Part shown: positions 1 through 46,977 of the stretch, one piece after another | How the letters are laid out: every line of letters starts with the position of its first letter | Position numbering within the stretch: position 1 is the stretch's first letter | From: a candidate division WWE3 bacterium | GTDB lineage: Bacteria > Patescibacteriota > WWE3 > 2-01-FULL-39-13 | DNA length: 64,000 nt | Assembly (NCBI GenBank): GCA_943354835.1 | Contig: CALRDH010000001.1 | Location: forward strand, 255,298-319,297 | Direction: 5' to 3' | Made by a program: the position numbers and the translations under genes | The notes under the pieces: model-generated | The model's input: the letters and a program-made list of their open reading frames with translations, nothing else | Database searches by the model: none | Told to the model about the DNA's origin: nothing

Positions 1-197
1 TATTAATAGTAGGCAAACTGGTTTTTGGTTCAACGCTTTCAGACAGGCCACTTTTTACAACAGGAATATTAATGATAATGCTTGGTTTAATAATGGTAAT
101 GTTTGGAATGTTAGGCGAACTTTTGATGAGAATTTATTTCGAATCATCAGGAAGAAAACCTTACATGGTTAGACAGATTTCAAGAAATGGCAAATAA
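1..197 (+). CDS. C-terminal fragment of a GT2 polyprenyl-phosphate glycosyltransferase (GtrB/ArnC/Dpm1-like); 5' end lies outside the window
   Basis: Frame ending in TAA at 195-197 translates to ...GILMIMLGLIMVMFGMLGELLMRIYFESSGRKPYMV, the characteristic C-terminal TM/amphipathic tail of GtrB/ArnC-type GT2 enzymes. Confidence 0.5.
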   Translation, partial: LIVGKLVFGSTLSDRPLFTTGILMIMLGLIMVMFGMLGELLMRIYFESSGRKPYMVRQISRNGK

Positions 198-2268
198 AAT
201 CTTTATTCGCGTAGGTATAAGCTTAGGCTTAATTTCGTATCTACTTTATACTCAAGATTTTGAAAAGATTAAGCTTGGAGTTCTATCATATAATCCACTA
301 TTTTTATTCTTTGCATTAATTTTGCTTTTATCTGGTACATTAGCTTCAAGTCTAAGATGGCAAGCAATTTTATCTACATCCAAAGTTCACGTTAAAGTTG
401 TTGATTTATTTAAGCTCTATATAAAAGGTTATTTTTATAATAACTTTTTGCCTACACAAATGGGTGGAGATGTTTATAAATCGGTAAGCCTCGGTAACAT
501 AATAAAAGACCAGGCAGTTTCTTTATTTAGCGTTTTCATGGATCGTTTTAGCGGACTTATTGTACTTTTGGTAATTGGGCTTTTGGGAATTTCATCTTTT
601 TACGGAATAAAAGGTGTAGCTTTGGCTTTTGGGTTTTTGGTTTTAGGACTTACGCTTTATTTTCCATTTTTGAATTTCTTTTCAAAAAAAGTAAAGTTTT
701 TAGAGAAATTTAAAATTGCAAGCGAAATGTTTGTAAAAGATAAACAGGGCGGTATGAAAGTATTGTTGTACTCAATCTTAGTTCAGCTTATTTCATTTGC
801 CACAACATACGTTTTATTCATGGGAATTGGAGTAAACCTTCCACTATGGAGTGTTTTTGCATACATGCCAATTGCATCACTTTCGCTTTTGATTCCTTCA
901 TTTAACGGCTTTGGAACTCAAGAAACTGTATACGCATTCTTATTTAGTGGAGTTGGCGTTACCTCAGAAGTTTCAATAACGGTTTCATTAATGATGCATG
1001 TAGTAAGATTGATTGTAAGTTTAATTGGTGGGGTGCTCTTAATAGGGGTAGCCCCGATAAAAAAGGGTAGCCCTTATATGAACATACTTCGCATTGTCTA
1101 CGATTGGCCCGATGAAAATGTAATTACGGAAGGATTGGCTCCAGCTCCGTATGAGCTTTCTGTATCACAAGCAAAATTAGGTCATAAAATATTTGTACTT
1201 TGTGGAAATTTAAACGGTAAAAATATAAAGGCAGGAAAATTCCATTATTCACTTGAAGATGGAAAGATTGAAGTTTTTAATCTTCCACGTGCAATAAATA
1301 AACTCGGGCCATTTTTATCGACCTCGATTTTCGTGCTTCCATATTATTTTTATCTAAAAGCAACAAAAAAAATTGATTTAATTCATAATCAGGGACATCT
1401 TGGAGTTTGGCTTTTAGTTTATAAATATATATTTGGTTTTATTGATAAGACTCCTGTTTTAGGTCATATTCACATAACGGCAAAAGGCAGAGAACAAAAA
1501 ATACTCGAACAGGGTAAACCAATTGATTTTTGGACTAAATATTTTGAATATCCAATTCATAAGATGTCCGATTACTTAACGGGTAAAGTTTGTGAAGAGA
1601 TCGTCACAGTTGGAATAGAAAATATAGACGAACTTCATAATTTGTATGGAATTGATAAAGATAAAATTACTTTACTTGAAAGCGGAGTTGATACAAAAAG
1701 ATTTTCAAGAAAAGGCGAGATTAATAAAACAGGATTTGGTAAGGATGATATCGTTTTAGGAAATATAGGAAGACTTAGTAAAAGAAAGAATATTGATGTT
1801 ATCGTTGAATCTTTAACATTTTTGCCAGAAAAATATAAGCTTGTTTTATGGGGAAAATGGGACGGAGAATTCGAGTCTGAAGTTCAGAAAATTATAGATC
1901 AAAAAAAACTTGCGTCACGTGTGAAGTATCTAGGACCTGTCTCTTATTTTTCTGTTGATAAAGCATATCGTGCAATTAATTTATTTTTGTTGCCCTCGAG
2001 TTACGAAGGTTTACCAAAGGTTGTTATAGAAGCTTTAAGCACAGGTTGCAAAGCCATCGCTAGCGGATTTAGCATGGATAAGGATGTTCCAAATATGTAT
2101 TTTCTAGACAAAATAGACCCAAAGACTTTAGCTGATTTAATTTTAAAGGTTTCGAAAAACCCTGATAAATACGAAGAAGCTCGCAAAGTAATTGAAAAAT
2201 ATTATAGCTGGGATTCAAAAGCTCACGACTTAGAAAAAATATATGCCAAGATCATCAAAAAAAATTGA
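187..2268 (+). CDS. Fusion protein: N-terminal polytopic membrane domain (UPF0104/LPG-synthase-TM 'flippase-like') plus C-terminal GT4/GT1-type glycosyltransferase
   Basis: 693-aa ORF. First ~300 aa are multi-TM. C-terminal half has GT4 motifs (…EGLPKVVIEALSTGCKAIAS…). Confidence 0.7.
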   Translation: MANKIFIRVGISLGLISYLLYTQDFEKIKLGVLSYNPLFLFFALILLLSGTLASSLRWQAILSTSKVHVKVVDLFKLYIKGYFYNNFLPTQMGGDVYKSVSLGNIIKDQAVSLFSVFMDRFSGLIVLLVIGLLGISSFYGIKGVALAFGFLVLGLTLYFPFLNFFSKKVKFLEKFKIASEMFVKDKQGGMKVLLYSILVQLISFATTYVLFMGIGVNLPLWSVFAYMPIASLSLLIPSFNGFGTQETVYAFLFSGVGVTSEVSITVSLMMHVVRLIVSLIGGVLLIGVAPIKKGSPYMNILRIVYDWPDENVITEGLAPAPYELSVSQAKLGHKIFVLCGNLNGKNIKAGKFHYSLEDGKIEVFNLPRAINKLGPFLSTSIFVLPYYFYLKATKKIDLIHNQGHLGVWLLVYKYIFGFIDKTPVLGHIHITAKGREQKILEQGKPIDFWTKYFEYPIHKMSDYLTGKVCEEIVTVGIENIDELHNLYGIDKDKITLLESGVDTKRFSRKGEINKTGFGKDDIVLGNIGRLSKRKNIDVIVESLTFLPEKYKLVLWGKWDGEFESEVQKIIDQKKLASRVKYLGPVSYFSVDKAYRAINLFLLPSSYEGLPKVVIEALSTGCKAIASGFSMDKDVPNMYFLDKIDPKTLADLILKVSKNPDKYEEARKVIEKYYSWDSKAHDLEKIYAKIIKKN
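1045..1077. repeat. 33-nt G/C-rich element GGGGTAGCCCC-N8-AGGGTAGCCCTTAT inserted in-frame in the membrane-GT4 fusion gene
   Basis: Same bipartite motif as 13643-13677. A related inverted half (GGGCTACCCCGATAT) occurs in the tRNA-Ala/23S spacer at ~46940-46968. Confidence 0.6.
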
Positions 2269-2881: not shown

Positions 2882-4090
2882 GTGAAATACACTTTTCCAA
2901 AGGATTTTGCTTGGGGAACCGCAACTTCAGCTCATCAAATAGAAGGAAATAATATTAATTCTGACTGGTGGGAATGGGAAGACTCAAAGAAATATTTCCC
3001 CCAAAGAGAGTTTCCTTTGGAGTCATCTGGTATAGCTTGCGATTCATATAATAGATACGAAGAAGATTTTGATTTATGCGTTGATTTAAACAATAATGCT
3101 GTAAGGATTTCCGTTGAATGGGCAAGAATAGAACCGACGCAAGGAAATTTTGACGAAAAGGAAATTGCGCATTATAAAAAGGTATTAAAATCAGCAAGAT
3201 CTCGTGGTTTGAAAACTTTTGTTACTCTTCACCATTTTACAAATCCGATTTGGTTTTCGAATCTCGGTGGATGGACAAATATAAATGCTCCAATTTATTT
3301 TGCAAAATATGCAAAAAAATGTGCAAAAGAATTTAACGATCTAATTGATGTTTATTTAACGATTAACGAACCACAAGTTTATGTCTACATGTCATATTTT
3401 CATGGAATTTGGCCGCCAAATAAAGTAAGCGCTGTTTTATCTTTGTGGGTGCAAATTAATCTAGCAAGAGCGAATAATAAGGCGTATAACGCAATAAAAG
3501 GTAATCATTTTAAAAAAGACGATGCTCCAACGGTAGGAATCGTCAAAAACATTGTTTGGTACGAGGCCTCAAATTCATCGAAAAATCCGCTAGATAAACT
3601 CGTCGCAAGTTTTTTATATTTTATTGGCGGCGATTTTTTCTTCCTTATGATTAGAAATAAATTTGACATAATTGGCCTAAATTACTATTTTACTAATCGT
3701 ATAAATAATCTAAAAACAAAAAACCCAGATGATGTTGTAAATGATTTAGGTTGGTGGATTTATCCGAAAGGACTTTACAATGTTCTTTTATCGCTTAAGA
3801 AATACAATGTTGAAATCTATATAACCGAAAATGGCCTTGCCGATGAGAAGGATGAAAAAAGAATACCTTTTATTCGAGACATGTTGGAATCTTGTGCGAA
3901 AGCCATAGATAAAGGAGTCAATTTGAAAGGCTATTTTCATTGGTCGCTTTTGGATAACTACGAGTGGCACCATGGATTTTGGCCATGCTTTGGTTTAGTA
4001 AAGGTCGATAGGGAAACTTTAAAAAGAAGTAAGCGTCCATCTTTTAAATATTATTCAGAAATTTGTAAAACTAGCGAATTAAAACTGTAG
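2882..4090 (+). CDS. Glycoside hydrolase family 1 beta-glucosidase
   Basis: GH1 catalytic motifs TINEP (acid/base) and ITENG (nucleophile). W-rich GH1 signature. Starts with GTG. Confidence 0.85.
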   Translation: MKYTFPKDFAWGTATSAHQIEGNNINSDWWEWEDSKKYFPQREFPLESSGIACDSYNRYEEDFDLCVDLNNNAVRISVEWARIEPTQGNFDEKEIAHYKKVLKSARSRGLKTFVTLHHFTNPIWFSNLGGWTNINAPIYFAKYAKKCAKEFNDLIDVYLTINEPQVYVYMSYFHGIWPPNKVSAVLSLWVQINLARANNKAYNAIKGNHFKKDDAPTVGIVKNIVWYEASNSSKNPLDKLVASFLYFIGGDFFFLMIRNKFDIIGLNYYFTNRINNLKTKNPDDVVNDLGWWIYPKGLYNVLLSLKKYNVEIYITENGLADEKDEKRIPFIRDMLESCAKAIDKGVNLKGYFHWSLLDNYEWHHGFWPCFGLVKVDRETLKRSKRPSFKYYSEICKTSELKL

Positions 4091-4103
4091 TAGAATAAAT
4101 TTA

Positions 4104-5174
4104 ATGCCTAGAAAAGACCTCAAAAAAGATATATCAGTAACAATCTTTTTGTTTAGACGTCTGTTTTTTAATCGAATTGCGAGATTCCTCTTTTTGTTCA
4201 TTTTTATTTTAGTTGCACTCCCTCTAGTTTTGTTTTTTATATTAAAACCGAAAATTCAATCGAATATAAACTACGGAGTTAATTTTAGTGATAAATATGC
4301 AACTGACCTTGGTCTAGATTGGAAAAGTTCGTATATAGAAATATTAGACGGATTAAACGTTAAAAATATTAGACTTGTTGCATATTGGAATGATATTGAA
4401 AAAACTAATGATACTTTTGATTTTAGTAACATTAAATGGCAACTTGAGGAAGCTGAAAAAAGAAATATAAACGTAATTTTAGCAATTGGGCGAAAAGAGC
4501 CAAGATATCCAGAGTGTCATGAGCCAGATTGGTGGAGAAACTCAAGCGACGAGAAACTAAAAGAAATCGAACTTTATGAATTTATTAAAAAATCAGTTCA
4601 AGAATTAAAGTCATATGAATCAATAAAAACTTGGCAAGTCGAAAATGAACCATTCTTTCCATTTGGTGACTGCCAGAAATCGTCCTTTGAGGTTGTTAAA
4701 AACGAAGTCGAAATTGTTCGAAGTTTAGACACAAGAAAAATATTAATTCAGGACAGCGGAGAAGGTGGATTCTGGTATCCAAGTTATAAAATGGCCGACT
4801 ACTTAGGAATTTCGATGTATAGAAAAATTTGGTACGATTTTTGGAAAATATTTTTTGGTAGATTTATATATTTCCAATATCCACTTGCGCATTGGACATA
4901 TAAGATTAAAGCGGATCTAGTTAACGTTCCATATCAAAATATTATTGTTACTGAACTTCAGTCAGAGCCGTGGGGTCCTGGGATAAACTCAAAACTCTCA
5001 CAAGATGAGAAAGATAAAACAATGTCTCGAACTGATTTTCTTGAAACTATAAATTATGCACAAAAGGCAGGCTTTAGTGATTTATACTTTTGGGGAGTTG
5101 AATGGTGGCTTTGGGAAAAGAATGTTAAAAATAACTCTTACTTTTGGGAAACAGGAAAAGCCTTATTTAACTAG
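4104..5174 (+). CDS. Membrane-anchored glycoside hydrolase of clan GH-A (GH5/GH26-like)
   Basis: N-terminal TM helix. Catalytic-type motifs WQVENEP and IIVTELQSEPW. Confidence 0.5.
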   Translation: MPRKDLKKDISVTIFLFRRLFFNRIARFLFLFIFILVALPLVLFFILKPKIQSNINYGVNFSDKYATDLGLDWKSSYIEILDGLNVKNIRLVAYWNDIEKTNDTFDFSNIKWQLEEAEKRNINVILAIGRKEPRYPECHEPDWWRNSSDEKLKEIELYEFIKKSVQELKSYESIKTWQVENEPFFPFGDCQKSSFEVVKNEVEIVRSLDTRKILIQDSGEGGFWYPSYKMADYLGISMYRKIWYDFWKIFFGRFIYFQYPLAHWTYKIKADLVNVPYQNIIVTELQSEPWGPGINSKLSQDEKDKTMSRTDFLETINYAQKAGFSDLYFWGVEWWLWEKNVKNNSYFWETGKALFN

Positions 5175-5971
5175 GATTTCGATTTAATAAGTTCAAGTCC
5201 GCCGATGATTCCATTTTCTTCACCAAGTTGTGAAATTTCTATACTAGGGTAGCTTTTGAAAGGTTCAAGTGAAGCTAACGTATCCTTTGTTTTTTGAAGA
5301 AAAAGTTGAGATTTTTTTGATAAACTTCCGCCTATAACTATAATATCGGGGCGCCATAGAAGAATAATATTGTGAAGGCCGAATCCAAGGTTTTTACCGA
5401 ATTCTGACCAAATATTTTCGTCATTATATTCTTCAGGCGAGACGCCATATCTTTTTCTGAAAGCAGTTCCAGAACATAGATTTTCAAATGTTTCATTTGT
5501 AGTGTAATTCAAAACGTGATGTCCCGGTTCAAAATTAAATATAGTGTCGGGGATTTTTTTGTTTACAATGATTGAACCTCCAACTCCTGTGCTGATTGTT
5601 ATATACGCGACTCTTGAATAGGTTTTGCCGGCTCCGTGAGTTGCTTCTGCAAGGCTTGCTAAAGCTGCGTCATTCTCTATATATATAGATTTATATTTTG
5701 TGTCTGAAACAATTTCTTCGACGAGTCGGTTATTAAGAAATCCTGCGTGAGGTGAATAGTAAATTCGTTTTTCAACTCTATTTACAAACCCGGCAGCTCC
5801 GATTGATATTGCTTCATACGAAGTATTTGATTCAAGGACGCCTTTGATTTTTGATTGAAGTTCATTGAATGTTTTTGGCGTAGGGAACTTTTGTATATCA
5901 AAAAATTGATTTAAATCTTTTGAAAGTCCTATTTTAGTTTTTGTTCCACCGATGTCTATTGATGCGTACAT
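5171..5971 (-). CDS. Sugar kinase of the ASKHA superfamily (ROK/glucokinase-like or BadF-type)
   Basis: N-terminal phosphate-1 motif SIDIGGTKTKIGL. Size and adenosine motif VIGGS. Confidence 0.65.
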   Translation of the reverse strand: MYASIDIGGTKTKIGLSKDLNQFFDIQKFPTPKTFNELQSKIKGVLESNTSYEAISIGAAGFVNRVEKRIYYSPHAGFLNNRLVEEIVSDTKYKSIYIENDAALASLAEATHGAGKTYSRVAYITISTGVGGSIIVNKKIPDTIFNFEPGHHVLNYTTNETFENLCSGTAFRKRYGVSPEEYNDENIWSEFGKNLGFGLHNIILLWRPDIIVIGGSLSKKSQLFLQKTKDTLASLEPFKSYPSIEISQLGEENGIIGGLELIKSKS

Positions 5972-7035
5972 AGTTTTTCAATTGCCGGAAGTTTTTTTCC
6001 AGCTAAAAATTCTAAAGTTGCTCCGCCAGCAAGGCTGATGTAGGAAATATCAGCCTTGCTGGCGAATTTATCTAGGGCGGCGACTGTGTCGCCGCCCGCT
6101 ACTACAGAAAATCCTCCATTTGATTTGATTTTACATATAGCTTCTACAACTTTTTTTGTGCCATTTGAATATTTTTCTTCTTCGTATTTCCCAAGAGGTC
6201 CTGCCCAAAATACTGTTTTTGATTTTTCTATTATTTCAACATACTTCTCGGTTAACTCTGGGCTTATATCGAATCCATCAATCAAATCAGTAGTGCTTGG
6301 AATTATTATTTTTGTTGCATCTATTTTACTTTTAAGTTCTGAAAGCTCCATTCGTGCTGAATTTACATTTCCTCCAACTAATATCATGTCGGAAGTCTTA
6401 TCAAGGTTTTCCATTTCATCAACTTTTTCTGTGATTTTTGCTCCACCAAATACGATTGTGTATGGTCGCATTACATTTTTTAATAATTTCTCAAGTCCTG
6501 ATACTTCGCTTTGAACATAAAACCCAGCATATGTAGGTAAGTAGTCCATGATGCCTGTCACAGATGCGCTATCTCTATGAGATTGAGGAAATGCATCAAA
6601 AACTATTACGTCAGAACCTGTAGTTAACGTTTTAGCAAAGACTTTTGAGTTTTCGGAATCTTCCTTATAAAAACGTGTGTTTTCGAGCATTAGGATATCT
6701 TTTGGATTCATTGCAATTATTGCTGCTTTAACTTTTTCGCCAACGCAATCATTAAGATGGTAAACTTTAGCTCCAAGTAAATTTGAAAGGGCTTTGGCAT
6801 GTGGTTTTGTACTCAAGCTAGAATCAACTCCATTTGGCCTTCCAACCCAAGTCAAAATTACTATCTTGCAGTTATTTTCGAGCAGATATTTTAATGTTGG
6901 AATTGTCGCTTCTATACGGGAATTGTCTTTAACTACATATTCACCATTAACAAGTTCAGTATCAATATCGTAAGGGGATCTGTATAAAACAGTTTTGCCT
7001 TCAATGTTTGCTGTTAAAAGCGATTTTAATTCCAT
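5956..7035 (-). CDS. pgk: Phosphoglycerate kinase
   Basis: Motifs KIVILTWVGRP, ILMLENTRFYKED, VVAGGDTVAAL and SLAGGATLEFL. Confidence 0.85.
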   Translation of the reverse strand: MELKSLLTANIEGKTVLYRSPYDIDTELVNGEYVVKDNSRIEATIPTLKYLLENNCKIVILTWVGRPNGVDSSLSTKPHAKALSNLLGAKVYHLNDCVGEKVKAAIIAMNPKDILMLENTRFYKEDSENSKVFAKTLTTGSDVIVFDAFPQSHRDSASVTGIMDYLPTYAGFYVQSEVSGLEKLLKNVMRPYTIVFGGAKITEKVDEMENLDKTSDMILVGGNVNSARMELSELKSKIDATKIIIPSTTDLIDGFDISPELTEKYVEIIEKSKTVFWAGPLGKYEEEKYSNGTKKVVEAICKIKSNGGFSVVAGGDTVAALDKFASKADISYISLAGGATLEFLAGKKLPAIEKLCTHQ

Positions 7036-8227: not shown

Positions 8228-8981
8228 TACAAGCCAAAATATTAACCCAGACAGGTTACCTGTTCATATTGCCATAATTGCAGATGGAAATCGAAGGTGG
8301 GCAAGAAGCAAAGGCCTGATGGATTTTGAAGGTCACAAGCATGGTTTTGAAACAATGCAACAGCTTTCTAAAGATGCAAGGAAGCTTGGAATCAAATATG
8401 TAACCTTTTGGTTTTTCTCGACCGAAAATTGGAAACGTGCGAAAGACGAAGTCGATTACTTGATGAATCTAGCACTTGTCAGAGTTGATAAAATGTCAAA
8501 AGATCTTATAGAAGAAGGTGTCCGGTTTACTCATCTTGGGAGAAAGGATAGGATTCCTAAAAAATTAGCCAAAAAGTTTTCGGAACTCGAAGAGAAAACA
8601 AAGCATTTTGTAGGATATTACCTTAATATAGCCTTTGATTACGGTGGACGAGATGAATTAGTAACAGCCATAAAGGAAATTATTAAATCTGGCGTGAAAG
8701 CAGAAGATGTAACAGAGGAGTTAATTCCTCAATATCTATACACAGGTAAATATATCCCAGATCCAGATCTAATCATAAGAACATCCGGTGAACAACGCTT
8801 AAGTGGATATTTAACATGGCAAGGAATTTATTCCGAACTTTATTTCCCACTTGTTCACTGCCCGGATTTTAATATTGATGAATTAAGAAAAGCCATAGCG
8901 TGGTATCAGGAAAGAGATAGGAAATACGGTGGAAATTCGGTTGTTGAGGATTCAAAATTTAAAAAGGTTTCGGTTTCTTGA
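8220..8981 (+). CDS. uppS: Undecaprenyl-diphosphate synthase (cis-isoprenyl transferase)
   Basis: HIAIIADGNRRWA catalytic motif and conserved C-terminal RXG region. Confidence 0.9.
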   Translation: MDNTSQNINPDRLPVHIAIIADGNRRWARSKGLMDFEGHKHGFETMQQLSKDARKLGIKYVTFWFFSTENWKRAKDEVDYLMNLALVRVDKMSKDLIEEGVRFTHLGRKDRIPKKLAKKFSELEEKTKHFVGYYLNIAFDYGGRDELVTAIKEIIKSGVKAEDVTEELIPQYLYTGKYIPDPDLIIRTSGEQRLSGYLTWQGIYSELYFPLVHCPDFNIDELRKAIAWYQERDRKYGGNSVVEDSKFKKVSVS

Positions 8982-9042
8982 CGATAAGTTATTTTGTCTT
9001 CCATTAGTATACCCATTGCCCCTTGGTATGCCGTGCCGTATC

Positions 9043-9309
9043 ATGTATACCATGAGCGCTTCTTCTAAACTAACAAGCAAATATCAGGTAACACTTCCTT
9101 CTTATGTAAGGGAGAATTTAGGACTTAAGCCTTCTGACAAGGTTACTTTTATTATTAAGAATGATGAGGTTATTATTAAAAAGATACGATCGTTGGATGA
9201 AATTATGGGCTCTATCAAAGGAAGAAAGAGCGTTGATGAAATTGATATTCATGAAGTAGCCGAAGACTACGTAGTTGATATGTATAAAAAGAAATGGCAT
9301 TTGTCTTAA
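9043..9309 (+). CDS. AbrB/MazE-fold antitoxin (VapB-like)
   Basis: SpoVT/AbrB swapped-hairpin motif YQVTLPSYVRENLGLKPSDKV. Start trimmed from ORF-track 8929 to ATG 9043 to avoid overlap with uppS. Overlaps downstream PIN gene. Confidence 0.55.
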   Translation: MYTMSASSKLTSKYQVTLPSYVRENLGLKPSDKVTFIIKNDEVIIKKIRSLDEIMGSIKGRKSVDEIDIHEVAEDYVVDMYKKKWHLS

Positions 9310-9689
9310 TTGATACGAATTTACTTATTAGGTTTTTTACAGGTGATGATCTTGTTAAAGCCAATAAGGTTAAGGCGTTATTGAACTCAACTGAAAATAA
9401 GATACTCCTTTTGGATATGGTTGTTGCTGAGTGTATCTGGCTTTTAACGAGGTATTATCAATTAAATCAAGAAGAAATTGAATCAATGCTAAGTCCGATA
9501 ATTGAGTCTGATACTGTAGTTGGTAATAAGCAGGTTTTAAGACTTGCTTTGGACATTTGGATAAAAGAGAAAATAAGTTTTATAGATGCTTATGAAATTG
9601 CTATGTCGGCAGAGTTAGGCGTTGATGTGATTTATAGCTACGATAAAAAGCTCGCCAAGGTTTCAGAAATCAAAGTCTTAGAGCCTTAA
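9294..9689 (+). CDS. PIN-domain toxin (VapC-like)
   Basis: N-terminal PIN motif FVLIDTNLLIRF with acidic residues downstream. Confidence 0.7.
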   Translation: MAFVLIDTNLLIRFFTGDDLVKANKVKALLNSTENKILLLDMVVAECIWLLTRYYQLNQEEIESMLSPIIESDTVVGNKQVLRLALDIWIKEKISFIDAYEIAMSAELGVDVIYSYDKKLAKVSEIKVLEP

Positions 9690-9697
9690 GTAAAGCT

Positions 9698-10129
9698 TTA
9701 AACTCCAACTACCTCAAATCCATATTTTTCGCCTAGCTTTTTGAAGTGTTTGTCGAATGTTGCCACGGCGGATATTTTATTTATTTTGGCAATGATGGAA
9801 GTAGATAGATCCACATAGCTAATGTTTTTATCTTTGAGTTTGAGGAATTCCAGTTGGATTTTTTTATCAAGGAGTTTGTCTATCCATATCATTTCTATAT
9901 TACTCCCCAAGAACCCCTGAAGCAGTCGATTACTTTCTAGTTTCCCGAGTTTCTGTGAAGACACGGTAGCTATCTCTAAAAATATATAATTCGTAATGTA
10001 TTTCTTTTCAAATGTATCAACTTTGGCGATATAATTTCCTGCGGAATGGTAGTTCGAATCTTTCCATAATGTTGATGAAATTATATAGCTTGTATCGAAT
10101 AGTATGCTAGTAGGCTTATTATATTCCAT
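9698..10129 (-). CDS. PIN-domain toxin (VapC-like)
   Basis: ILFDTSYIIS N-terminal PIN motif. Overlaps upstream small antitoxin gene. Confidence 0.5.
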   Translation of the reverse strand: MEYNKPTSILFDTSYIISSTLWKDSNYHSAGNYIAKVDTFEKKYITNYIFLEIATVSSQKLGKLESNRLLQGFLGSNIEMIWIDKLLDKKIQLEFLKLKDKNISYVDLSTSIIAKINKISAVATFDKHFKKLGEKYGFEVVGV

Positions 10130-10439
10130 ATACTATTTTATCTATGTTCCCAGATATATTTTCTGTTTTTTCGATTGGGACTGGAGGATGTTTGTCTCTC
10201 CAATCTTTCAGAATGTCCATTATATTCTCGCCAATTTTTTTCTTGGGTTTTACTTCCGTGAATACATATTCTGGGAGATATTTATCAGCCGTGGCTTTAT
10301 CAATCATTACAACTTTTGGCTCATTTCTAACTTTGACGACATACATATAATCGCCACTTGCCGACTCTTTTACTACATCGCTGAAATTTGCCCTGATGTC
10401 TTTTAAATTAGAGAATTTGACTATCTTTTTATTTTCCAT
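10119..10439 (-). CDS. Phd/YefM-type antitoxin
   Basis: IRANFSDVVKESASGD…VVMIDKATADKY pattern typical of Phd/YefM. Confidence 0.5.
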   Translation of the reverse strand: MENKKIVKFSNLKDIRANFSDVVKESASGDYMYVVKVRNEPKVVMIDKATADKYLPEYVFTEVKPKKKIGENIMDILKDWRDKHPPVPIEKTENISGNIDKIVYGI

Positions 10440-12562: not shown

Positions 12563-13942
12563 ATGTCTGACCGTTTTTACATTACAACTCCAATTTATTA
12601 TGCGAATGATGTTCCACATATTGGACACACAGGAACAACGATTTTTGCAGATATTATTGCAAGATATCAAAGATCGCTAGGTAAGGACGTCTTTTTTCTA
12701 ACAGGAACCGATGAGCATGGTGAAAAGGTTGCAAAAGCAGCGGAGAGTGCAGGAAAGAATCCACAGGAATTTGTCGATGAACTTGCATTAAAGTGGCAAG
12801 AATACTGGAAAAAATTAAATATAAGTAATGACCAATTTATGCGAACGACGCTGCCTGGGCATGAAAAGGTTGCTCAAGAATTACTCGTTTTGCTTCAAGC
12901 AAAAGGCGACATCTACAAAGGTGTCTATAAAGGCATTTATTGTTGGGGATGTGAGGAATTCAAATCAGAAAAAGATTTAGTCGATGGAAAATGTCCAGAG
13001 CACAGGCCTGATCAAGTTGAATATCGTGAAGAAGACAATTACTTTTTTAAACTTTCAAAATATATTCCGCGTGTTAAGGATCTAATTGAAAGCGGTGAAC
13101 TTTCTGTTGAACCAGAAAATAAGAAGGCCGAAATGTTGGCAAGAATAGAAGGTGGCGTTAATGATTTGTCGGCTTCTCGTCAAAATGTTACGTGGGGAGT
13201 TCCGATTCCTTGGGATACATCGCATACAACATATGTTTGGATTGAAGCTTTAATGAACTATTATTCTGCAACAAAAATTTGGAATAAAGAAGGATTTTGG
13301 CCAGCGGATGTGCATTTTCTTGGAAAGGGTAATAACTGGTTTCATTCCGTGATTTGGCCAGCACTTTTATTGGCTTTGGATTTGCCTTTGCCAAAAAGGG
13401 TTTTTGTTCATGGATATTATAATGTTGAAGGTCGAAAAATGGGTAAATCTTTGGGAAACGTTATATCTCCTGGGGAATTAATGGATAGGTATGGGGTAGA
13501 TGGTACAAGATATTTGCTTGCTGCAAGCATGCCATATGCTGATGACAGCGATGTAAGTATGAAATGGTTTGATGAAAAATTCAATTCTGATTTAGCAAAT
13601 GGCTTGGGGAACTTGGTTTCAAGAGTGGCGAAGTTCGTAAATGGGGGTAGCCCCTCAAAAGAAAGGGTAGCCCTTATTAATACATACTATGACAATTTTA
13701 AGCTAAACGAGGTTATTTCTGAATCCCAGAAGCTTGTTAAGTTCGTTAATGACTATTTTAGTAGTGAAGCACCTTGGAAGCTTGAAGGCGATGCTAGGAA
13801 AGTTGTTATAGACGCAGCGGTTGAGAAAATAATTGAAATCGCAAATCTTTTAGAACCGGTTATGCCGGAGTCTTCATCAGAAATTAGAAAAATATTAAGT
13901 GGAGAAGTCCCATCAAAAAATCTTTTTATGAGAATTGTTTAG
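12563..13942 (+). CDS. metG: Methionyl-tRNA synthetase, short form
   Basis: PIYYANDVPHIGH (HIGH), KMGKSLGN (KMSKS), CWGCEE…CPEH zinc knuckle. Carries an in-frame G/C-rich insert at 13643-13677. Confidence 0.9.
   Translation: MSDRFYITTPIYYANDVPHIGHTGTTIFADIIARYQRSLGKDVFFLTGTDEHGEKVAKAAESAGKNPQEFVDELALKWQEYWKKLNISNDQFMRTTLPGHEKVAQELLVLLQAKGDIYKGVYKGIYCWGCEEFKSEKDLVDGKCPEHRPDQVEYREEDNYFFKLSKYIPRVKDLIESGELSVEPENKKAEMLARIEGGVNDLSASRQNVTWGVPIPWDTSHTTYVWIEALMNYYSATKIWNKEGFWPADVHFLGKGNNWFHSVIWPALLLALDLPLPKRVFVHGYYNVEGRKMGKSLGNVISPGELMDRYGVDGTRYLLAASMPYADDSDVSMKWFDEKFNSDLANGLGNLVSRVAKFVNGGSPSKERVALINTYYDNFKLNEVISESQKLVKFVNDYFSSEAPWKLEGDARKVVIDAAVEKIIEIANLLEPVMPESSSEIRKILSGEVPSKNLFMRIV
13643..13677. 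repeat. 35-nt G/C-rich element GGGGTAGCCCC-N9-AGGGTAGCCCTTAT inserted in-frame in metG; near-identical copy inside the gene at 187-2268
   Basis: Direct sequence comparison with 1045-1077. The two copies are read in different frames in the two host genes. Confidence 0.6.
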
Positions 13943-15457: not shown

Positions 15458-17340
15458 TGGATTTATTAAAGGAGTTAAACCAGGAACAAAAAGATGTTGT
15501 GTTGCATGATGGGGGGCCGGCTATGATAATAGCCGGCCCAGGTAGCGGTAAAACAAGAGCTTTAACTCATAAGATTGCTTATTTGATTCAAGATAAAGGT
15601 TTAAGTCCAGATCAAATTTTGGCTGTCACTTTTACGAATAAAGCCGCAAAAGAAATGAAACAAAGAGTAGAAAGTTTGCTCAAAGACACAGGTCTTAGTG
15701 CTCCTTCATGGATTGGAACTTTTCATGCAATTTGTGTCCGAATATTGCGTATCGAAGGCACTTCCTTAGATTTAGCTCCTGATTTTGTTATTTATGATAC
15801 AGATGATTCATTAAAAATTATAAAAGAAGTCATGGATGAAATAGGCGATTCTATGAGCGATTTAGCTCCAAAAGCAGTTTTGTCCTCAATTTCTAGAGCA
15901 AAAAATGAACTTATCGATCCAAAGGAGTATACAAAGCAATCAGGGGGAAATTATTTTTTTGATCGCGTAAGCAAGATTTATCCCAAGTATCAAGACCGGT
16001 TAAAAGATAACCATGCTTTGGACTTTGATGACATATTATTCGCGGTAGTAAAGCTTTTTCATGGTAACCCAAATGTACTCGAAAAGTATCAAAAAAAGTT
16101 TTTGCAGGTCCTCGTTGATGAGTATCAGGACACTAATCGAGTACAGTATAGCCTAGTAAAAATGATTGCAAAGACGCATAGGAACATAACTGTCGTCGGC
16201 GATGTTTCTCAATCCATCTATTCATGGAGAGGGGCTGACTATAGAAACATGCTTCAGTTCGAAAAAGATTATCCTGGGGCAAAGGTTTATAAACTTGAAA
16301 AAAATTATAGATCGACGAAAAACATTCTTCTTGCGGCAAAAACTCTAATTGAGAATAATTCAACGCATATTTCTATTGATCTTTATACTGATAATCCAAC
16401 TGGCGAGAAGGTCTATTTGTATGAAGCAGAGCATGAAAAGTCTGAAGCAGGTTATGTAGCGGATACAATTGCAATGAGTTTTGCTTCAAGTACTAGCCAT
16501 AGTCCTGAATATTTATCGAAGTCGTCATACAGTGACTGTGCTGTTTTATATAGAACAAATGCTCAATCAAGAGCTATCGAGGAATCATTTATTTCAGCTG
16601 GAATTCCGTACAGAATAGTTGGCGGTGTTAGATTCTATGATAGAAGAGAAATTAAGGATGCATTGGCTTATTTAAGAGTTTTTCAAAATCCAAGAGATAC
16701 GGTTTCTTGGGATAGGTGCGTGAATACTCCAGCAAGAGGAATCGGCAAAAAGGGAATGGAAAGGATCAAGGAGTCTAGTTATGATGTTTCTTTAATAGAG
16801 GAATTAACTCACCTAGATTGGAATAAGTATATAAATGTAGCTTCAGAAAATGCTCCAATTGTTCTTATAGATGCAGTTTTAAAATATTTTAATTATCTAG
16901 AATATCTAAATGATGGCACTGAAGAAAGTCTTTCTCGTATAGAAAATATAAAAGAGCTTCGTACAGTTGCCGGCCAATTTTCTAGTCTTTCTGAATTTTT
17001 AGAAAGCGTTGCTTTGGTCGAGTCTTCGAACAGGGCATTGGATGCTGTTTCAGATGCAGTTACTTTAATGACTCTTCATTCAGCAAAAGGTCTCGAATTT
17101 GATAATGTCTTTATAGTAGGAATGGAAGAAGGCATTTTTCCTCATTCAAGGGCTATGACTGATCCAAAAGAGTTAGAAGAGGAACGCAGACTTTGTTATG
17201 TTGGCATAACAAGAGCAAAGAAAACCCTTTATTTAACGTATACAAGAAGACGAACTTTATATGGTCAATCAGGCACTTCAATTGTCTCAAGATTTATAGC
17301 AGAATTGCCTGAACATGTATTGAAATTCAGTTTTAGTTGA
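15457..17340 (+). CDS. pcrA: UvrD/PcrA/Rep-family ATP-dependent DNA helicase
   Basis: Motif I AGPGSGKT, Ia TFTNKAA, II VLVDEYQDTN, III QSIYSWRGA, IV YRST, V/VI LHSAKGLEF…VGITRAK. Confidence 0.85.
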   Translation: MDLLKELNQEQKDVVLHDGGPAMIIAGPGSGKTRALTHKIAYLIQDKGLSPDQILAVTFTNKAAKEMKQRVESLLKDTGLSAPSWIGTFHAICVRILRIEGTSLDLAPDFVIYDTDDSLKIIKEVMDEIGDSMSDLAPKAVLSSISRAKNELIDPKEYTKQSGGNYFFDRVSKIYPKYQDRLKDNHALDFDDILFAVVKLFHGNPNVLEKYQKKFLQVLVDEYQDTNRVQYSLVKMIAKTHRNITVVGDVSQSIYSWRGADYRNMLQFEKDYPGAKVYKLEKNYRSTKNILLAAKTLIENNSTHISIDLYTDNPTGEKVYLYEAEHEKSEAGYVADTIAMSFASSTSHSPEYLSKSSYSDCAVLYRTNAQSRAIEESFISAGIPYRIVGGVRFYDRREIKDALAYLRVFQNPRDTVSWDRCVNTPARGIGKKGMERIKESSYDVSLIEELTHLDWNKYINVASENAPIVLIDAVLKYFNYLEYLNDGTEESLSRIENIKELRTVAGQFSSLSEFLESVALVESSNRALDAVSDAVTLMTLHSAKGLEFDNVFIVGMEEGIFPHSRAMTDPKELEEERRLCYVGITRAKKTLYLTYTRRRTLYGQSGTSIVSRFIAELPEHVLKFSFS

Positions 17341-17366: not shown

Positions 17367-19643
17367 ATGGCAAAACGTGGTCGCAAGCCCAGGAGGCGCA
17401 TAGTTTGGGAATCCCATAAAACAACATTAATATCGGCTGTTTCTTTAGTCTTTATTTTGTTGTCTGTTTTATCTGTGATTTCTATTTTTGCTGGAGTGGG
17501 TGATTCAGCAGGTTTTCTTATTTCAAAACTTAGGTATTTTGTTGTCGATGGATTTGGATTCGCATCATTTATGGTTCCAGTTGTTCTTTTATATGTAGGT
17601 TTGCTTTTTATTGGAAGTATTAATTGGAAATTTTTGAACTCTAGAATTTTAATTGGTATAGGATTTTTCTTTTTAGGATTTTTAGGAATGTTTGGAGAAA
17701 ATGGGGGAGGATTTGTAGGCGGTTTTGTTACAAACAAAACCGCCCTTTTGCTGTCCTATGCTGGTGCTGTTTTCTTTTATTTCATATTGTCCGTGTTTGC
17801 TGTGATTTTAATATCAAACACAGGTCTTAATGTTTTTATTGAAAAGATAAAACCGTTTTTTGCTTTGATCTCAAATAAAGTTTTTAAGATTAATAGCGCT
17901 TCGGATTCTTCGGAACCCACAGATGTTCTCGAAACTTCTAGCGGTTTGATAAGTGATACTTTTGAATCTCCTATTATTGATTATTCAGCGCAAGATTTAA
18001 ATATCACCACAGAAGAAGATTTGTCTGCTTTGCATGATAGCGATTTTCAGTTGATATCTCCGCCTTCTGGACCCGTTGATGATTTAGAAGGTTCGTCTAC
18101 TGTTGAAAAGCCTGTGGTTTTGGTTCCTGATGTTTCGTACGAAGATCTTCCTGAAGCAGAAAAAAAGACTTCAAGATTGCCATTTTCTAATAAATTGTGG
18201 GAATATCCTCCGCATAGCCTTTTGTCTGATACTCCAAATCGTCCACCTGATGCAGGTGATATAGAAGGAAGAGCAAGAATGATAGAAGAAACTTTAAGGG
18301 CTTTTGGAATTAATGCTACAACAGTTGATAAGCATGTGGGTCCTGCGGTTACACGTTATGCTTTAAACCTTCCAATTGGAGTAAAGGCAAGTAAGGTTCA
18401 AGGTTTAAGTACGGACCTTGCATTAAGGCTTAAGTCACCAAGTGGTTCTGTTCGTATAGAGGCCCCAATTCCCGGAACAAATTTAGTTGGTATTGAGGTT
18501 CCAAATTTTACGCCTTCTTCTGTTTCATTAAAAAGTGTTTTAGAAAGTGATGAGCTTAAAAAATCAAAAGGTAAGTTATGTATTGCAATAGGGCACGATG
18601 TTTCTGGTAAATCGGTTGTTTCTGATATGTCAAAATGGCCGCATGCTTTAATTGCTGGAGCGACTGGTACAGGTAAATCAGTCTTTTTGAATGAGATTAT
18701 TGCAACTCTTCTTTTTAGATGTTCTCCATCTGAATGTAGGTTTATTATGATTGACCCAAAGCTTGTCGAGTTAAGTCAATATAATGGTATTCCACATTTA
18801 TTAACGCCAGTTGTTACGGATATGGAGCAAAAAGCAGTTTCAGCACTTGCTTGGGCAGTTTCTGAAATGGAAAGAAGGTATCAGTTGTTTGCAAATGCAG
18901 GAGTCAGGAATATTGCTGATTTTAATACTAAGTCTGGTTTTCAAGCAGAGCCGTATATTGTTATTGTTATCGACGAGATTGCCGATATGATGATGGTTGC
19001 TGCAAGTGAAGTCGAAAAGTATATTATTAGACTTGCTCAAAAATCTAGGGCCACAGGGATTCATTTGATTTTGGCTACACAAAGACCTTCTGTAAATATT
19101 TTGACAGGAACTATTAAGGCTAATGTTCCAACACGTTTTGCTTTTAAGGTTACTTCAAATGTTGATTCTAGAGTTATTATTGATCAAGCAGGCGCTGAAA
19201 CACTTATTGGTCGTGGAGATATGCTTTTTGTACCTCCTGATGATAATAAACCAAAGAGGCTTCAAGGTGCTTATGTTAGCGATGATGAGATTACACGTCT
19301 TGTTGATTATTTAAGAAATACAGGCATTGAGCCAGATTATAAAGACGAGATTTTAAAGCATAAGGTCGAGGTTAAGTCTTCTTCTGGAAGGCCTTCTGGT
19401 GATATTGACCCTAAGATTGTTGAGGCTTTGGAGATAATTTTGTCTGAAGGAAAGGCTTCTGCTTCGTATTTACAAAGGAAGCTTGGACTTGGTTATTCAA
19501 GGGCCGCAAGAATTATTGACGAGCTTCAAGATACTGGTATCATAGGGCAGGCAAATGGAAGCAAGCCAAGAGAAGTTTTGGTTTCCGGTCTTGACGAAGC
19601 TATTTCGCGTTTAAGTAGTGAAGATAAAGATAAAAACGAATAA
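17367..19643 (+). CDS. ftsK: DNA translocase FtsK
   Basis: N-terminal TM domain, linker, FtsK motor (GATGTGKSV; ILATQRPS…VPTRFAFKV), C-terminal gamma winged helix (ASYLQRKLGLGYSRAARIID). Confidence 0.9.
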   Translation: MAKRGRKPRRRIVWESHKTTLISAVSLVFILLSVLSVISIFAGVGDSAGFLISKLRYFVVDGFGFASFMVPVVLLYVGLLFIGSINWKFLNSRILIGIGFFFLGFLGMFGENGGGFVGGFVTNKTALLLSYAGAVFFYFILSVFAVILISNTGLNVFIEKIKPFFALISNKVFKINSASDSSEPTDVLETSSGLISDTFESPIIDYSAQDLNITTEEDLSALHDSDFQLISPPSGPVDDLEGSSTVEKPVVLVPDVSYEDLPEAEKKTSRLPFSNKLWEYPPHSLLSDTPNRPPDAGDIEGRARMIEETLRAFGINATTVDKHVGPAVTRYALNLPIGVKASKVQGLSTDLALRLKSPSGSVRIEAPIPGTNLVGIEVPNFTPSSVSLKSVLESDELKKSKGKLCIAIGHDVSGKSVVSDMSKWPHALIAGATGTGKSVFLNEIIATLLFRCSPSECRFIMIDPKLVELSQYNGIPHLLTPVVTDMEQKAVSALAWAVSEMERRYQLFANAGVRNIADFNTKSGFQAEPYIVIVIDEIADMMMVAASEVEKYIIRLAQKSRATGIHLILATQRPSVNILTGTIKANVPTRFAFKVTSNVDSRVIIDQAGAETLIGRGDMLFVPPDDNKPKRLQGAYVSDDEITRLVDYLRNTGIEPDYKDEILKHKVEVKSSSGRPSGDIDPKIVEALEIILSEGKASASYLQRKLGLGYSRAARIIDELQDTGIIGQANGSKPREVLVSGLDEAISRLSSEDKDKNE

Positions 19644-22599: not shown

Positions 22600-24384
22600 T
22601 TAAGACACCATTGCAAGGAGTTTAGCTTCGGTTATCACTTTGATGCCTAGCTTTTTTGCTTTTTCTAGTTTTGAGCCGGCGTTTTCGCCGGCGATTAGGT
22701 AGTTTGTGTTTTTGGTTAGGGCGGCGGCGTACTCGCCGCCGCCTTGTTCTATTATTTCTATTAGTTCTTCACGTGAGTATTTTTGTTTTTTACCCGTTAT
22801 GCAAAAGGTGAGTCCTGCAAGTTTTGCGGATGTTAGTTCCTTTTTAAAACTTAGGCCTTTTCTAAATAAGCTTTCCGCTATTTGCCATTTTTCTTTTATG
22901 TCTTGAATAAAACTTTCCGCTTTGTTTGGGCCGATTCCTTTAATATCTTGAAGATCTTCTTTTGTGAGAAGGTTGAGCTTCTCGATTCCGTATTTCTTTA
23001 TTATCCATTTGCTTGAAGCCCTTCCAATATCCTTAACTCCAAGCGCTTCAAGAAGTTCGAATTCAGTAATTGTTTTATCTAGTGTTTTTTGAATTCCTGA
23101 CACAATGTTGCTTGCACTTTTATCTCCAAATCCATCAAGTGGAGCTATTTGTTCTACTTTTAGATTGTAAAAATCGATAGGGGAAGTTATTTCAAATACA
23201 TCCATAAATTTCTCAATTGTTTTAAGTCCAAGCTCTTGTACGTTTAGTGCCTTAAAAAAATGCTCTATTTCCTGAGATTTCCTTGCAGGACATTTTTGAT
23301 TAATGCATTCAAGATATTTGCCATTTCTTGTTATTTTTGATTTACATATTGGGCATACGTTTGGTATCAAAAATGGAGAATCCGAAGCCTTAACGTTTGT
23401 AATAAAAGGGATGACTTCTCCTGATCTACAAACTTCGACATCAGATCCAATTCCGATTTTTGTTTTTTCAACAAAATCGATATTGTGCAACGTAACATTT
23501 TTTATTGTGGCACCGCTTAAATCGATAGGTGTTATCACTGCAACGTTTGTAATGCGACCTGTTCTTCCGACTTGGCTTTTAATATCCAAAACTTTGCTCC
23601 ACTTTCTTTCAGCGGGTAATTTGTATGCAACCTGCCACTTTTCATGATGTTCGGTTGCTTCAAACTTATCTCTGATTTTATTATCAGCAACTTTTATGAC
23701 GACTCCATCAAGAGGGTAGTCAACTTGAAGTGTTTCTTCCAGAATTCCTTCCCATTCATCTTTGTCCAAAAGGCTATCGATACTAACAGTTTTTGAGTTC
23801 GCCTCATCATAAATAATAAAGTGAACGCCTTTATCCATAAGAGCTTTTATGCCGGATTCACTGACTTTTTTCGATTTAATAATTCCGACAACTGCATTGC
23901 GTGGATTTTTGTATTCCTTAGCAAGATTTTTATTAAAATATGATAGGGGAATTATGATTTCGCCTAAAACAGCTTCGCTTTTTTTTGGTAATTTGCCGAT
24001 TATGTTTAGGTCCTTAAGTCTTTTAGAAATATCTTCTCCGACAAGTCCATTTCCACGAGTAGACAGAACGCCGTTTTGATATTTTGCCGCCATGCCGTCA
24101 TATTTAGGTTCAATAATGTATTTTTTATCGCCTGTCGAAATAAGCCATTTTTGAATTTCCTCATATGAATATCTTTTTTCTATCGAAAGCATAGGCTTTT
24201 CATGAGTTACATCTCCAATTTCACCGACTAACTCAAAAAGAGTAGGGTTTGAAGGGTCAAGCTTTCTTAATCCTTCGACTAATTGGTCAAATTCTTGATC
24301 GCTAATTTGTGGATTATTGTTGATAAAATATAGCTTATTGTGAAGTTTTATTTCTTTTTCGAGAGTTTGAATATTTTTTTGCAT
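22600..24384 (-). CDS. ligA: NAD-dependent DNA ligase
   Basis: KYDG adenylation motif (IIEPKYDGMAAKY), Cys4 zinc finger (CPICKS…CINQKCPARK), HhH region, C-terminal BRCT (LAGLTFCITGK). Start trimmed to MQKNIQTLEKEI… at 24384 (LigA-like N-terminus). Confidence 0.9.
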   Translation of the reverse strand: MQKNIQTLEKEIKLHNKLYFINNNPQISDQEFDQLVEGLRKLDPSNPTLFELVGEIGDVTHEKPMLSIEKRYSYEEIQKWLISTGDKKYIIEPKYDGMAAKYQNGVLSTRGNGLVGEDISKRLKDLNIIGKLPKKSEAVLGEIIIPLSYFNKNLAKEYKNPRNAVVGIIKSKKVSESGIKALMDKGVHFIIYDEANSKTVSIDSLLDKDEWEGILEETLQVDYPLDGVVIKVADNKIRDKFEATEHHEKWQVAYKLPAERKWSKVLDIKSQVGRTGRITNVAVITPIDLSGATIKNVTLHNIDFVEKTKIGIGSDVEVCRSGEVIPFITNVKASDSPFLIPNVCPICKSKITRNGKYLECINQKCPARKSQEIEHFFKALNVQELGLKTIEKFMDVFEITSPIDFYNLKVEQIAPLDGFGDKSASNIVSGIQKTLDKTITEFELLEALGVKDIGRASSKWIIKKYGIEKLNLLTKEDLQDIKGIGPNKAESFIQDIKEKWQIAESLFRKGLSFKKELTSAKLAGLTFCITGKKQKYSREELIEIIEQGGGEYAAALTKNTNYLIAGENAGSKLEKAKKLGIKVITEAKLLAMVS

Positions 24385-40450: not shown

Positions 40451-40537
40451 GGCGCAGTCACAAATTTAGTAGCACTTTAACAATTTAAGAGTCAGCAATA
40501 TATATCGGTTTTTGAATGGTGAAAAGAATTTTATTTA

Positions 40538-41990
<1,453 letters not shown>

Positions 41991-42861: not shown

Positions 42862-42876
42862 AGTTATACTCCGTAT

Positions 42877-46871: not shown

Positions 46872-46977
46872 GTTTGTAAATCATGGCTTACGATAAGCGG
46901 ATTTTCGCTCTTTAACAACTGAATAGATTATTTAAAGGGGCAGCCACCTTAAAAGGGCTACCCCGATATTGTAAAAA

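Follow-up and report, generated by a model that had tools for sequence, protein, structure and literature searches.

A doublet of very small REP-type hairpin repeats in candidate division WWE3, probably part of a REP-RAYT system

The DNA examined is a 64-kb stretch of contig CALRDH010000001.1 from candidate division WWE3 (Patescibacteria, or candidate phyla radiation [CPR]), referred to below as the window. It is 36% G+C and approximately 88% coding. The closest homologues of its methionyl-tRNA synthetase and glycosyltransferase likewise bear names from this group. Two unrelated genes of the window carry the same short, G+C-rich, two-part element, and a variant lies in an rRNA spacer. The element is probably a doublet of very small hairpin repeats of the repetitive extragenic palindromic (REP) type and part of a WWE3 REP-RAYT system, RAYT being the REP-associated tyrosine transposase. 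The copies and their host genes are as follows.

187..2268, + strand: 693-amino acid (aa) open reading frame (ORF), host of copy 1 (Pfam: LPG_synthase_TM at aa 5-281, GT4/GT1 glycosyltransferase at aa 298-693)
1041..1078, + strand: REP-like doublet, copy 1 (unit 1 GGGGTAGCCCC at 1045-1055, unit 2 AGGGTAGCCCTTAT at 1064-1077)
12563..13942, + strand: metG, methionine--tRNA ligase of 459 aa, host of copy 2 (from Pfam and orthologue alignment)
13640..13678, + strand: REP-like doublet, copy 2 (unit 1 GGGGTAGCCCC at 13644-13654, unit 2 AGGGTAGCCCTTAT at 13664-13677)
46933..46968, + strand: variant doublet AAAGGGGCAGCCACCTTAAAAGGGCTACCCCGAT in the spacer between tRNA-Ala and 23S rRNA (an imperfect CAG-loop unit, GGGCAGCCA, plus a CTA-loop unit)

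Sequence of the window copies

Copy 1 reads GGGGTAGCCCC-GATAAAAA-AGGGTAGCCCTTAT (33 nt, 1045-1077) and copy 2 reads GGGGTAGCCCC-TCAAAAGAA-AGGGTAGCCCTTAT (34 nt, 13644-13677). The two agree at all 25 specified positions. The units of copy 1, both of which have the loop TAG on the + strand, are 19 nt apart, and those of copy 2, which encodes the peptide GSPSKERVAL, are 20 nt apart. Both copies had been found in a first-pass annotation as GGGGTAGCCCC-N8/9-AGGGTAGCCCTTAT, with one extra G counted at the start of copy 2 (13643, giving 35 rather than 34 nt). The translations quoted there are correct, with the half-sites read in different frames in the two hosts. The element was also called GC-skewed, but it is G+C-rich and not GC-skewed. 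A length that keeps the host frame was claimed as well; copy 1 is 33 nt long, but the claim fails for copy 2, whose 34 nt (or 35 with the extra G) do not make up whole codons.

A profile built from 20 related doublets (described below) finds three members in the window: copy 1 (nhmmer E-value: 4.7e-9), copy 2 (E-value: 1.8e-11) and the doublet at 46933-46968 (E-value: 1.1e-3). This third doublet is located just 5' of the 23S rRNA gene and folds as a hairpin on either strand. No Rfam family was found at any window copy. The rRNA operon around the third doublet is split (40531-50104), with the order 16S, tRNA-Ile, five protein genes, tRNA-Ala, REP-like doublet, 23S and 5S. The five genes (42877-46601) encode DUF218, Sua5/YciO/YrdC, RsmG/GidB and T2SSE-type ATPase proteins on the + strand and an NTP_transferase on the - strand.

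Pairs of the form GGGTAGCCC-N5-25-GGGTAGCCC occur twice in the window, compared to 0.00 expected from 100 dinucleotide-preserving shuffles. GGGTAGCCC itself is the most over-represented 9-mer of the window (5 occurrences against 0.054 expected under a third-order Markov model, 93x), and it is also the top 9-mer of a related locus, L007 (188x). Chance resemblance or a shared protein motif has a negligible probability as an explanation. In its favour, there are only two full copies in the window, each of which encodes a small Gly/Ser/Pro/Ala/Val-rich peptide. It is refuted by the shuffles, by exact copies at orthologous sites and by codon conservation: zero pairs are expected, both reading frame and strand vary between copies, intergenic copies exist and rare codons are conserved in metG. 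The first-pass view of a nucleotide-level repeat rather than a protein motif is upheld on these grounds.

Structure and distribution of the repeat family

The repeat unit is a mini-hairpin, AAGGG-TAG-CCCTT (13 nt) or GGGG-TAG-CCCC, with a G:C stem of 4-5 bp and a 3-nt loop. Extended stems are found in L082 (GTCCAAGGG-TAG-CCCTTGGAC) and L007. Because the stem is palindromic, a unit can sit in either orientation (loop TAG or CTA). In approximately 220 kb of related contigs, 53 of the 77 GGGNNNCCC words have one of these two loops. Units are usually paired across an A-rich spacer, and the pair is bracketed by ...ATAA and TTAT... Twenty distinct doublets with an exact spacing of 20 nt give the consensus AAtAA-GGGNNNCCC-cT.aAAAA.Aa-GGGNNNCCC-TTATttt. 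In the clade that resembles the window this spacing holds regardless of loop orientation and all four loop combinations occur; the doublets of L007 and L010 are spaced at 17-18 nt. By loop orientation, doublets are direct as often as they are inverted. Both full window copies are direct (TAG, TAG), but the two units of a direct doublet can still pair with each other since their stems are palindromic.

Metagenome matches alone place the element in at least seven distinct genomic contexts, including antisense copies in an aminotransferase gene and a GT2 gene. The clusters of the family fall into three groups of roughly equal size: inside coding sequence, at the ends of genes, and intergenic. Neither the frame nor the strand is constant among coding copies (GVAP, GSP and RVAL in sense; GLP, GYP and RATL in antisense). 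In the sense orientation one frame in three escapes the loop TAG, while all three antisense frames are open.

A contig scan was made with the pattern GGGGTAGCCCC-N4-14-GGGTAGCCC, which is too strict and too G+C-rich for the family. Only one of its 68 loci (L050) is from WWE3. The other 67 are chance matches in mostly G+C-rich genomes, in about the estimated number, plus unrelated repeats of an Atopobiaceae metagenome-assembled genome (MAG) and Segatella copri. A scan of viral contigs gave no matches, and thus no sign of a phage origin. TIGR-Tas arrays were considered and ruled out, as there are two or three units inside genes, no array and no Tas gene.

Some other repeats resemble the element in part. 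The Atopobiaceae MAG (RGIG5869/RGIG4340; L012, L020, L026, L038, L041, L048, L049, L052, L073 and L076) has its own unrelated dispersed repeats with direct GGGGTAGCCCC pairs, as do Segatella/Prevotella and a Lachnospiraceae bin (L051, L061, L069, L070 and L077). An identical 34-mer, GGGGTAGCCCCGTCCATGTGCCACGGGGTAGCCC, is one example among the repeats of these unrelated, more G+C-rich genomes. In a different organism (metagenome contigs L079, L082, L085, L088 and L091-L094; GC 0.44-0.50), tandem arrays of GTACAAGGGTAGCCCTATGTAGTACAAGGGTAGCCCTTGTA-type units share the core AAGGG-TAG-CCCTT. Some of these arrays lie inside long open frames and encode YIGLPLY-type repeats, and RAYT homologues are present on L082. 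L007 has a second hairpin family with the loop TAA or TTA (GGGGTAACCCC/GGGGTTACCCC; 4093-4124, 5224-5249 and 16670-16678). These hairpins are located between convergent or divergent genes and some have flanking A- and T-runs, similar to bidirectional terminators.

The regular spacing raises the question of a host functional site that is not mobile: either the binding site of a dimeric protein (a pair of pseudo-palindromic 9-mers separated by two helical turns) or an RNA hairpin, terminator or mRNA stabiliser at gene ends. We consider this unlikely. It would account for a 20-bp spacing that is fixed regardless of loop orientation, for the many copies at gene 3' ends or between operon genes, for the T-runs that follow some copies (such as T8 in L050) and for exact sequence conservation. 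The sense-strand RNA of both full window copies is also predicted to form a 12-bp hairpin (z = -2.3 and -2.65) that the antisense strand does not form. However, copies in variable loops of metG, uvrD, GH1, GT2 and the aminotransferase gene have no obvious regulatory logic, most copies have no U-tract, the architecture of the element turns over at a single locus (the copy 1 junction) and there are no Rfam matches. Copies also occur in both orientations relative to transcription, and the CTA orientation forfeits the hairpin, which depends on G:U pairs; an RNA-only hairpin was rejected as the general function for this reason. A host site is compatible with co-option of REPs by the host, and so is as much a complement as a rival.

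Association with a RAYT-type transposase

L097 encodes a 186-aa IS200-like Y1 transposase (3090-3650) with the conserved domain PF01797 (E-value: 3e-13; 50.4 bits, cut-off 23). The search for homologues gave 275. Three motifs show no variation among 18 homologues compared, namely YH..NRG, NHFH (the HUH motif) and YIH.NP. Doublets lie on either side of the gene, at 3008-3036 and 3637-3665, and the latter encodes the C-terminus of the transposase (KRVAP*). In L102 the RAYT gene is likewise flanked by doublets and has the same neighbours as in L097 (rplL-rplJ-rplA-rplK-nusG); the rplL-rplJ neighbours also appear in the gene table of the P0188 contig, so that three lineages share this synteny. The sample from which L102 derives also yielded the closest metG relative (93% identity). 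No TnpB gene is adjacent to RAYT. A RAYT gene flanked by repeats is the defining arrangement of REP-RAYT systems (PMC5581495, PMC3116915).

Flanking on both sides is observed in four loci, with the window-type motif in L097 and L102 and with variant or extended motifs in L103 and L082. L103, a contig of 48% G+C, encodes a RAYT of 52% identity whose gene is flanked by the variant GGGTTACCC/GGGTTATCC. All five sites of this variant on the contig are within 65 nt of the ends of the RAYT gene. L082, a contig of 45% G+C, carries two RAYT homologues flanked by TCCAAGGG-TAG-CCCTTGGA in inverted orientation. The repeat variant tracks the RAYT lineage.

Upstream of RAYT in L097 (917-3007) is a gene whose 696-aa product has an intein/Hint splicing domain at its N-terminus and weakly resembles a phage minor capsid protein. 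This gene also holds a single REP unit, at 1641.

Copy 1 and the fusion ORF

Copy 1 is located exactly between the LPG_synthase_TM and glycosyltransferase domains of the 693-aa ORF. It encodes an 11-aa linker, GVAPIKKGSPY, and is followed by the ATG (1078) for the Met of the glycosyltransferase. All 64 homologues listed for this ORF cover the glycosyltransferase part only, and none spans both domains. In the three relatives whose DNA was read (L008, L009 and L010) there are two separate genes with the element at the same junction, in a different architecture in each, and the upstream gene ends in or just after the element. The L008 junction is GGGTAGCCT-N11-GGGTAGCCC, in which the TAG of unit 2 is the stop codon of the upstream gene. 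L009 has a perfect 15-bp palindrome (GGGGTAGCCCCTCGC-AAAA-GCGAGGGGCTACCCC) and L010 has three units with the loops CTG, TAG and CAG.

In the window, a spacing of 19 nt together with the junction TTAT-ATG keeps the frame free of stop codons, and the gene for the upstream membrane protein is therefore fused to that for the glycosyltransferase. Judged from the sequences compared, the fusion ORF appears in the window alone among these relatives. It hinges on a phase difference of 1 nt in or next to the element, which includes an A6 run at 1059-1064; for this reason it may be either a real REP-mediated fusion or an assembly indel. The sequence ACATACT, which follows both full window copies, was considered as an extension of the element and rejected as a coincidence: at copy 1 it is part of the glycosyltransferase start codons, and it is absent from L008 and L010.

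Copy 2 in metG

Copy 2 encodes part of a variable linker (residues approximately 361-371) that follows GNLVSRVAKF in the methionyl-tRNA synthetase (MetRS). In an AlphaFold2 model of the protein (mean predicted local distance difference test score [pLDDT] 83), residues 362-371 are coil with a pLDDT below 50, between helices 333-356 and 373-377. The doublet is thus predicted to form a disordered linker at a position where it is tolerated. Linker length varies among MetRS orthologues, and the linker of the window is no longer than those of the outgroups. Simple insertion is not demonstrable here, as removal of 12 codons gives a linker shorter than that of any outgroup.

The half-sites are exact at the same codons in five orthologous metG loci from three further lineages (L001; L002/L003; L004/L005; 84-93% protein identity), with the copies of L002 to L005 starting AGGG. 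The metG gene of L006 has a degenerate version of the element with three additional codons, and in that of L007 (69% identity) the element is absent. Orthologues with the peptide also have the nucleotide motif, including L006, where both are degenerate. The refuting condition named in the first-pass annotation, the same peptide in orthologues that lack the motif, was therefore not observed. Within the half-sites, 7 of 7 codons are identical in four lineages, compared to 118 of 332 (0.355) other codons for the same amino acids (P about 7e-4). These are rare codons (CCC 6%, GCC 8%, AGC 10%). The retention of all seven indicates that the DNA itself is constrained, and not the peptide alone.

In-frame insertion into unrelated genes, as the first-pass annotation described both window copies, is not supported in that form for either. 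Copy 1 is not in a pre-existing fusion gene, and copy 2 adds no length relative to the MetRS linkers of outgroups.

The metG region is otherwise syntenic between lineages, with small PIN/MazE-type toxin-antitoxin pairs gained or lost (L002-L005 and L008; window 8929-10439).

Gains, losses and in-gene palindromes at other loci

The clearest gain is in the GT2 gene of L100, where a doublet adds exactly 36 nt in frame, or 12 codons (ATAAGGGCTACCCTTCAAAAAGAGGGGCTACCCTTA, encoding IRATLQKEGLPL), in comparison with L001 and with the window gene (minus strand, 25128-26021). An intergenic gap of 57 nt in L007 is taken up by the element, and the corresponding genes overlap in the window. A variable loop of uvrD has inverted doublets in L001, L002 and L004/L005, which are absent from the window and L007. 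The arms of these doublets covary (TAG/CTA versus CAG/CTG), being GGGTAGCCC...GGGCTACCC in one lineage and GGGCAGCCC...GGGCTGCCC in the others. From these alignments, simple insertion of the element appears to be partly supported, with a clean case in L100 and length-neutral copies against it. Mobility, as the first-pass annotation called it, has indirect support from the same insertion and from the RAYT-type gene flanked by the element in sister genomes.

The same comparisons bear on whether the element is a DNA uptake signal, similar to the uptake signal sequences (USS) of Haemophilus or the DNA uptake sequences (DUS) of Neisseria. Under this reading, a short word for which the competence machinery has a preference builds up in place by biased uptake and homologous recombination, also in variable coding parts and with no change of length. 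Patescibacteria are thought to depend on DNA uptake. No other 9-mer is as over-represented, coding as well as intergenic DNA contains the element in either orientation, its copy in the GH1 gene of L009 appeared with no change of length, it is exactly conserved at synonymous sites and it forms inverted pairs at gene ends, as do Neisseria DUS. Even so, an uptake signal is very unlikely. The units are usually doublets with a fixed spacing of 20 nt, doublets flank the RAYT gene and the variant changes with the RAYT lineage, the L100 insertion is a clean 36 nt, and covariation of the loops preserves complementarity between the arms rather than one fixed word. The density in the window is about 1 per 13-20 kb, compared to about 1 per kb for known USS/DUS. 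A literature search found no paper linking uptake sequences to Patescibacteria.

The coding regions of the window also contain perfect G+C-rich palindromes with stems of 7-16 bp, several of them within the conserved protein motifs GGDTVAA, GGGEYAAA and AGENAG. Those within coding sequences are as follows.

6024-6064: palindrome in pgk
6075-6097: palindrome in pgk
15514-15539: palindrome in uvrD
17718-17744: palindrome in ftsK
22675-22692: palindrome in ligA
22720-22743: palindrome in ligA
25565-25598: palindrome in the GT2 gene
28375-28436: palindrome in a hisS-like gene
32285-32323: palindrome in a coding sequence

Hairpins with a stem of at least 10 bp number 11 in the coding sequences of the window, compared to a mean of 1.24 and a maximum of 5 in 100 synonymous-codon shuffles. 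The palindrome in the Walker-A region of uvrD (GPAMIIAGP, 15514-15539) has a perfect 11-bp stem in all five lineages (window, L001, L002, L004 and L007). Synonymous changes in one arm are compensated in the other, which preserves the palindrome: one pair is UA, AU or GC and another GC or CG, all Watson-Crick. In the GT2 loop (window 25565-25598, in the minus-strand gene; L100 8038-8086; and L001) three lineages have three different hairpin elements: a triple GGGYWRCCC array in L100, ATGCGGGCCAGGCC-gcagag-GGCCTGGCCCGCAT in the window and GCGGGC-CAG-GCCCGC in L001. This loop looks like a hotspot for palindromic elements.

A palindrome-making mutation acting in place (template switching or quasi-palindrome correction), with no transposition, could in principle be the source of both the element and the other perfect coding palindromes. 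The excess of coding hairpins is in keeping with it, as are the compensatory changes in the Walker-A palindrome, a variable PGK segment that is the exact reverse complement of a conserved one at unchanged length, and the length-neutral GH1 copy. As a full explanation it is highly improbable. Template switching gives arbitrary local palindromes, not the same 13-nt unit, 20-nt spacing and flanks at more than 20 unrelated loci, and it leaves the RAYT association and the clean 36-nt insertion unexplained. It may still help to hold the arms complementary.

Proposed model

Assignment of the element to a REP-RAYT system, which we consider probable, is based on a RAYT-type gene that is flanked on both sides by doublets and on a repeat variant that changes with the transposase lineage. 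The proposed model is as follows. By analogy with what is known of the family, the doublets would owe their mobility to RAYT, an HUH/Y1 transposase whose single-copy gene would lie at another site of the genome with doublets on both sides. The enzyme would recognise hairpins formed by single-stranded DNA and then disperse the doublets. In genomes that are approximately 90% coding, copies would last at sites where their cost is small, namely in gaps between genes, at the 3' ends of genes, or in frame in disordered or variable loops, where a doublet of 36 nt would contribute 12 codons. Single copies would be kept exact by either host-level selection or a homogenising process.

Several observations weigh against this model. 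Unlike classical REPs, which are extragenic, both full window copies are inside ORFs, and unlike REPINs, which are doublets of inverted units, they are direct by loop orientation. Given this location, the element is classed as a variant that works like a REP and not as a classical REP. The density of doublets is low (3 per 64 kb) and tblastn detects no RAYT gene within the window. The only NCBIfam match of the L097 protein, 'REP-associated tyrosine transposase' (REP_Tyr_transpos), scores 42.5 bits, which is under the cut-off of 80. A search of the PDB with a single RAYT sequence gave nothing, and a profile gave weak matches to ISDra2 TnpA (1.4e-3) and E. coli TnpArep (0.023). L097 and L102 are rich in REPs, so the flanking of RAYT could be partly incidental in these two; L103 and L082 argue otherwise.

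The remaining difficulties concern how copies arise and persist. The metG linker is not longer than those of outgroups, which is not what simple insertion would give, and the uvrD copies change length by only 3-4 aa. The direct doublet in the GH1 gene of L009 is length-neutral relative to the window, which has no motif at this site; 14 of 36 positions differ, with no indel. Selfish transposition alone does not explain the exact conservation of one copy over such divergence. The length-neutral GH1 copy and the exact metG copy therefore mean that replacement, conversion or selection must also act.

A more far-reaching version of the REP-RAYT model is possible, although on balance it is doubtful. 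Coding DNA itself would be the target of the REP-RAYT system, or of a homogenising process that depends on hairpins and is coupled to the system. Essential genes would receive hairpin modules of 12 codons in their loops and at their termini, adjacent genes would become fused, and these and many other in-gene palindromes would stay base-perfect by compensatory changes. The maintenance of DNA hairpins would then be a genome-wide force that shapes the proteins of ultra-small bacteria, and not merely a tolerated parasite.

Comparison with known systems

REP/REPIN elements with a RAYT transposase are reportedly the subject of Nunvar 2010. The WWE3 repeats are similar to the REP/REPIN-RAYT systems of E. 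coli and Pseudomonas (PMC3116915, PMC5581495) in having short, G+C-rich palindromic units that usually occur as doublets and, in the window and L007, are highly over-represented. As in those systems, the gene for a Y1/HUH transposase is syntenic across relatives and flanked by repeats, the variant tracks the transposase lineage and repeats persist for a long time at orthologous sites. The 16-mers of P. fluorescens REPINs are located 71 bp apart. The WWE3 units are far smaller, being 13-nt hairpins with a 3-nt loop in a doublet of approximately 36 nt. They also differ in that doublets are direct as often as inverted by loop orientation, in that about a third of the clusters are in frame inside ORFs, including essential genes, and in their host, a Patescibacteria genome of about 36% G+C.

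Rickettsia palindromic elements (RPEs) were reportedly described by Ogata et al. in 2000. RPEs and the WWE3 element are both palindromic repeats found in frame in unrelated housekeeping genes of a reduced genome, with the peptide at tolerated, surface-type positions (PMC10969869). With a length of about 100-150 bp, RPEs contribute 30-50 residues, and they have no known cognate transposase (PMC10969869). By contrast, the WWE3 element, at 33-36 nt or 11-12 residues, is about four times shorter, and RAYT is its candidate transposase. Several of its copies are length-neutral, its peptide differs by frame and strand, and the two sequences are unrelated.

Haemophilus USS, Neisseria DUS and cyanobacterial HIP1 are single words that occur about once per kb and are not known to have a fixed doublet spacing, a transposase association or discrete insertions. 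What they have in common with the WWE3 element is a top over-represented short word in both orientations, placement at variable protein positions, appearance with no indel and pairing in inverted orientation at the ends of genes. The GC clusters and double-hairpin elements of fungal mitochondria (yeast var1, Allomyces) are organellar and have no known mobilising enzyme. They too are very short G+C-rich hairpins in a compact A+T-rich genome, located in spacers, in variable regions of rRNA and in frame in protein genes; their sequences are unrelated to those described here.

Literature searches found no report of this motif or of REP-RAYT in CPR/Patescibacteria, although the absence of a paper is weak evidence, and papers containing the string GGGTAGCCC have it in primers only. 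To our knowledge, REP-RAYT systems have been studied almost only in Proteobacteria and as extragenic repeats. The WWE3 element would be a miniature version in a candidate-phyla-radiation lineage with a tiny, gene-dense genome. Its repeats in coding sequence supply linkers, C-termini and even stop codons, and in the window they join two genes into one ORF. For annotation, this means that such elements can produce apparent gene fusions and odd low-complexity peptides in MAGs. AAGGGTAGCCCTT doublets 20 nt apart offer a simple marker for tracking the lineage and a minimal substrate for RAYT biochemistry. Finally, the exact upkeep of single copies at synonymous sites, over substantial divergence, is relevant to whether REPs should be seen as parasites or as sequences that the host maintains.

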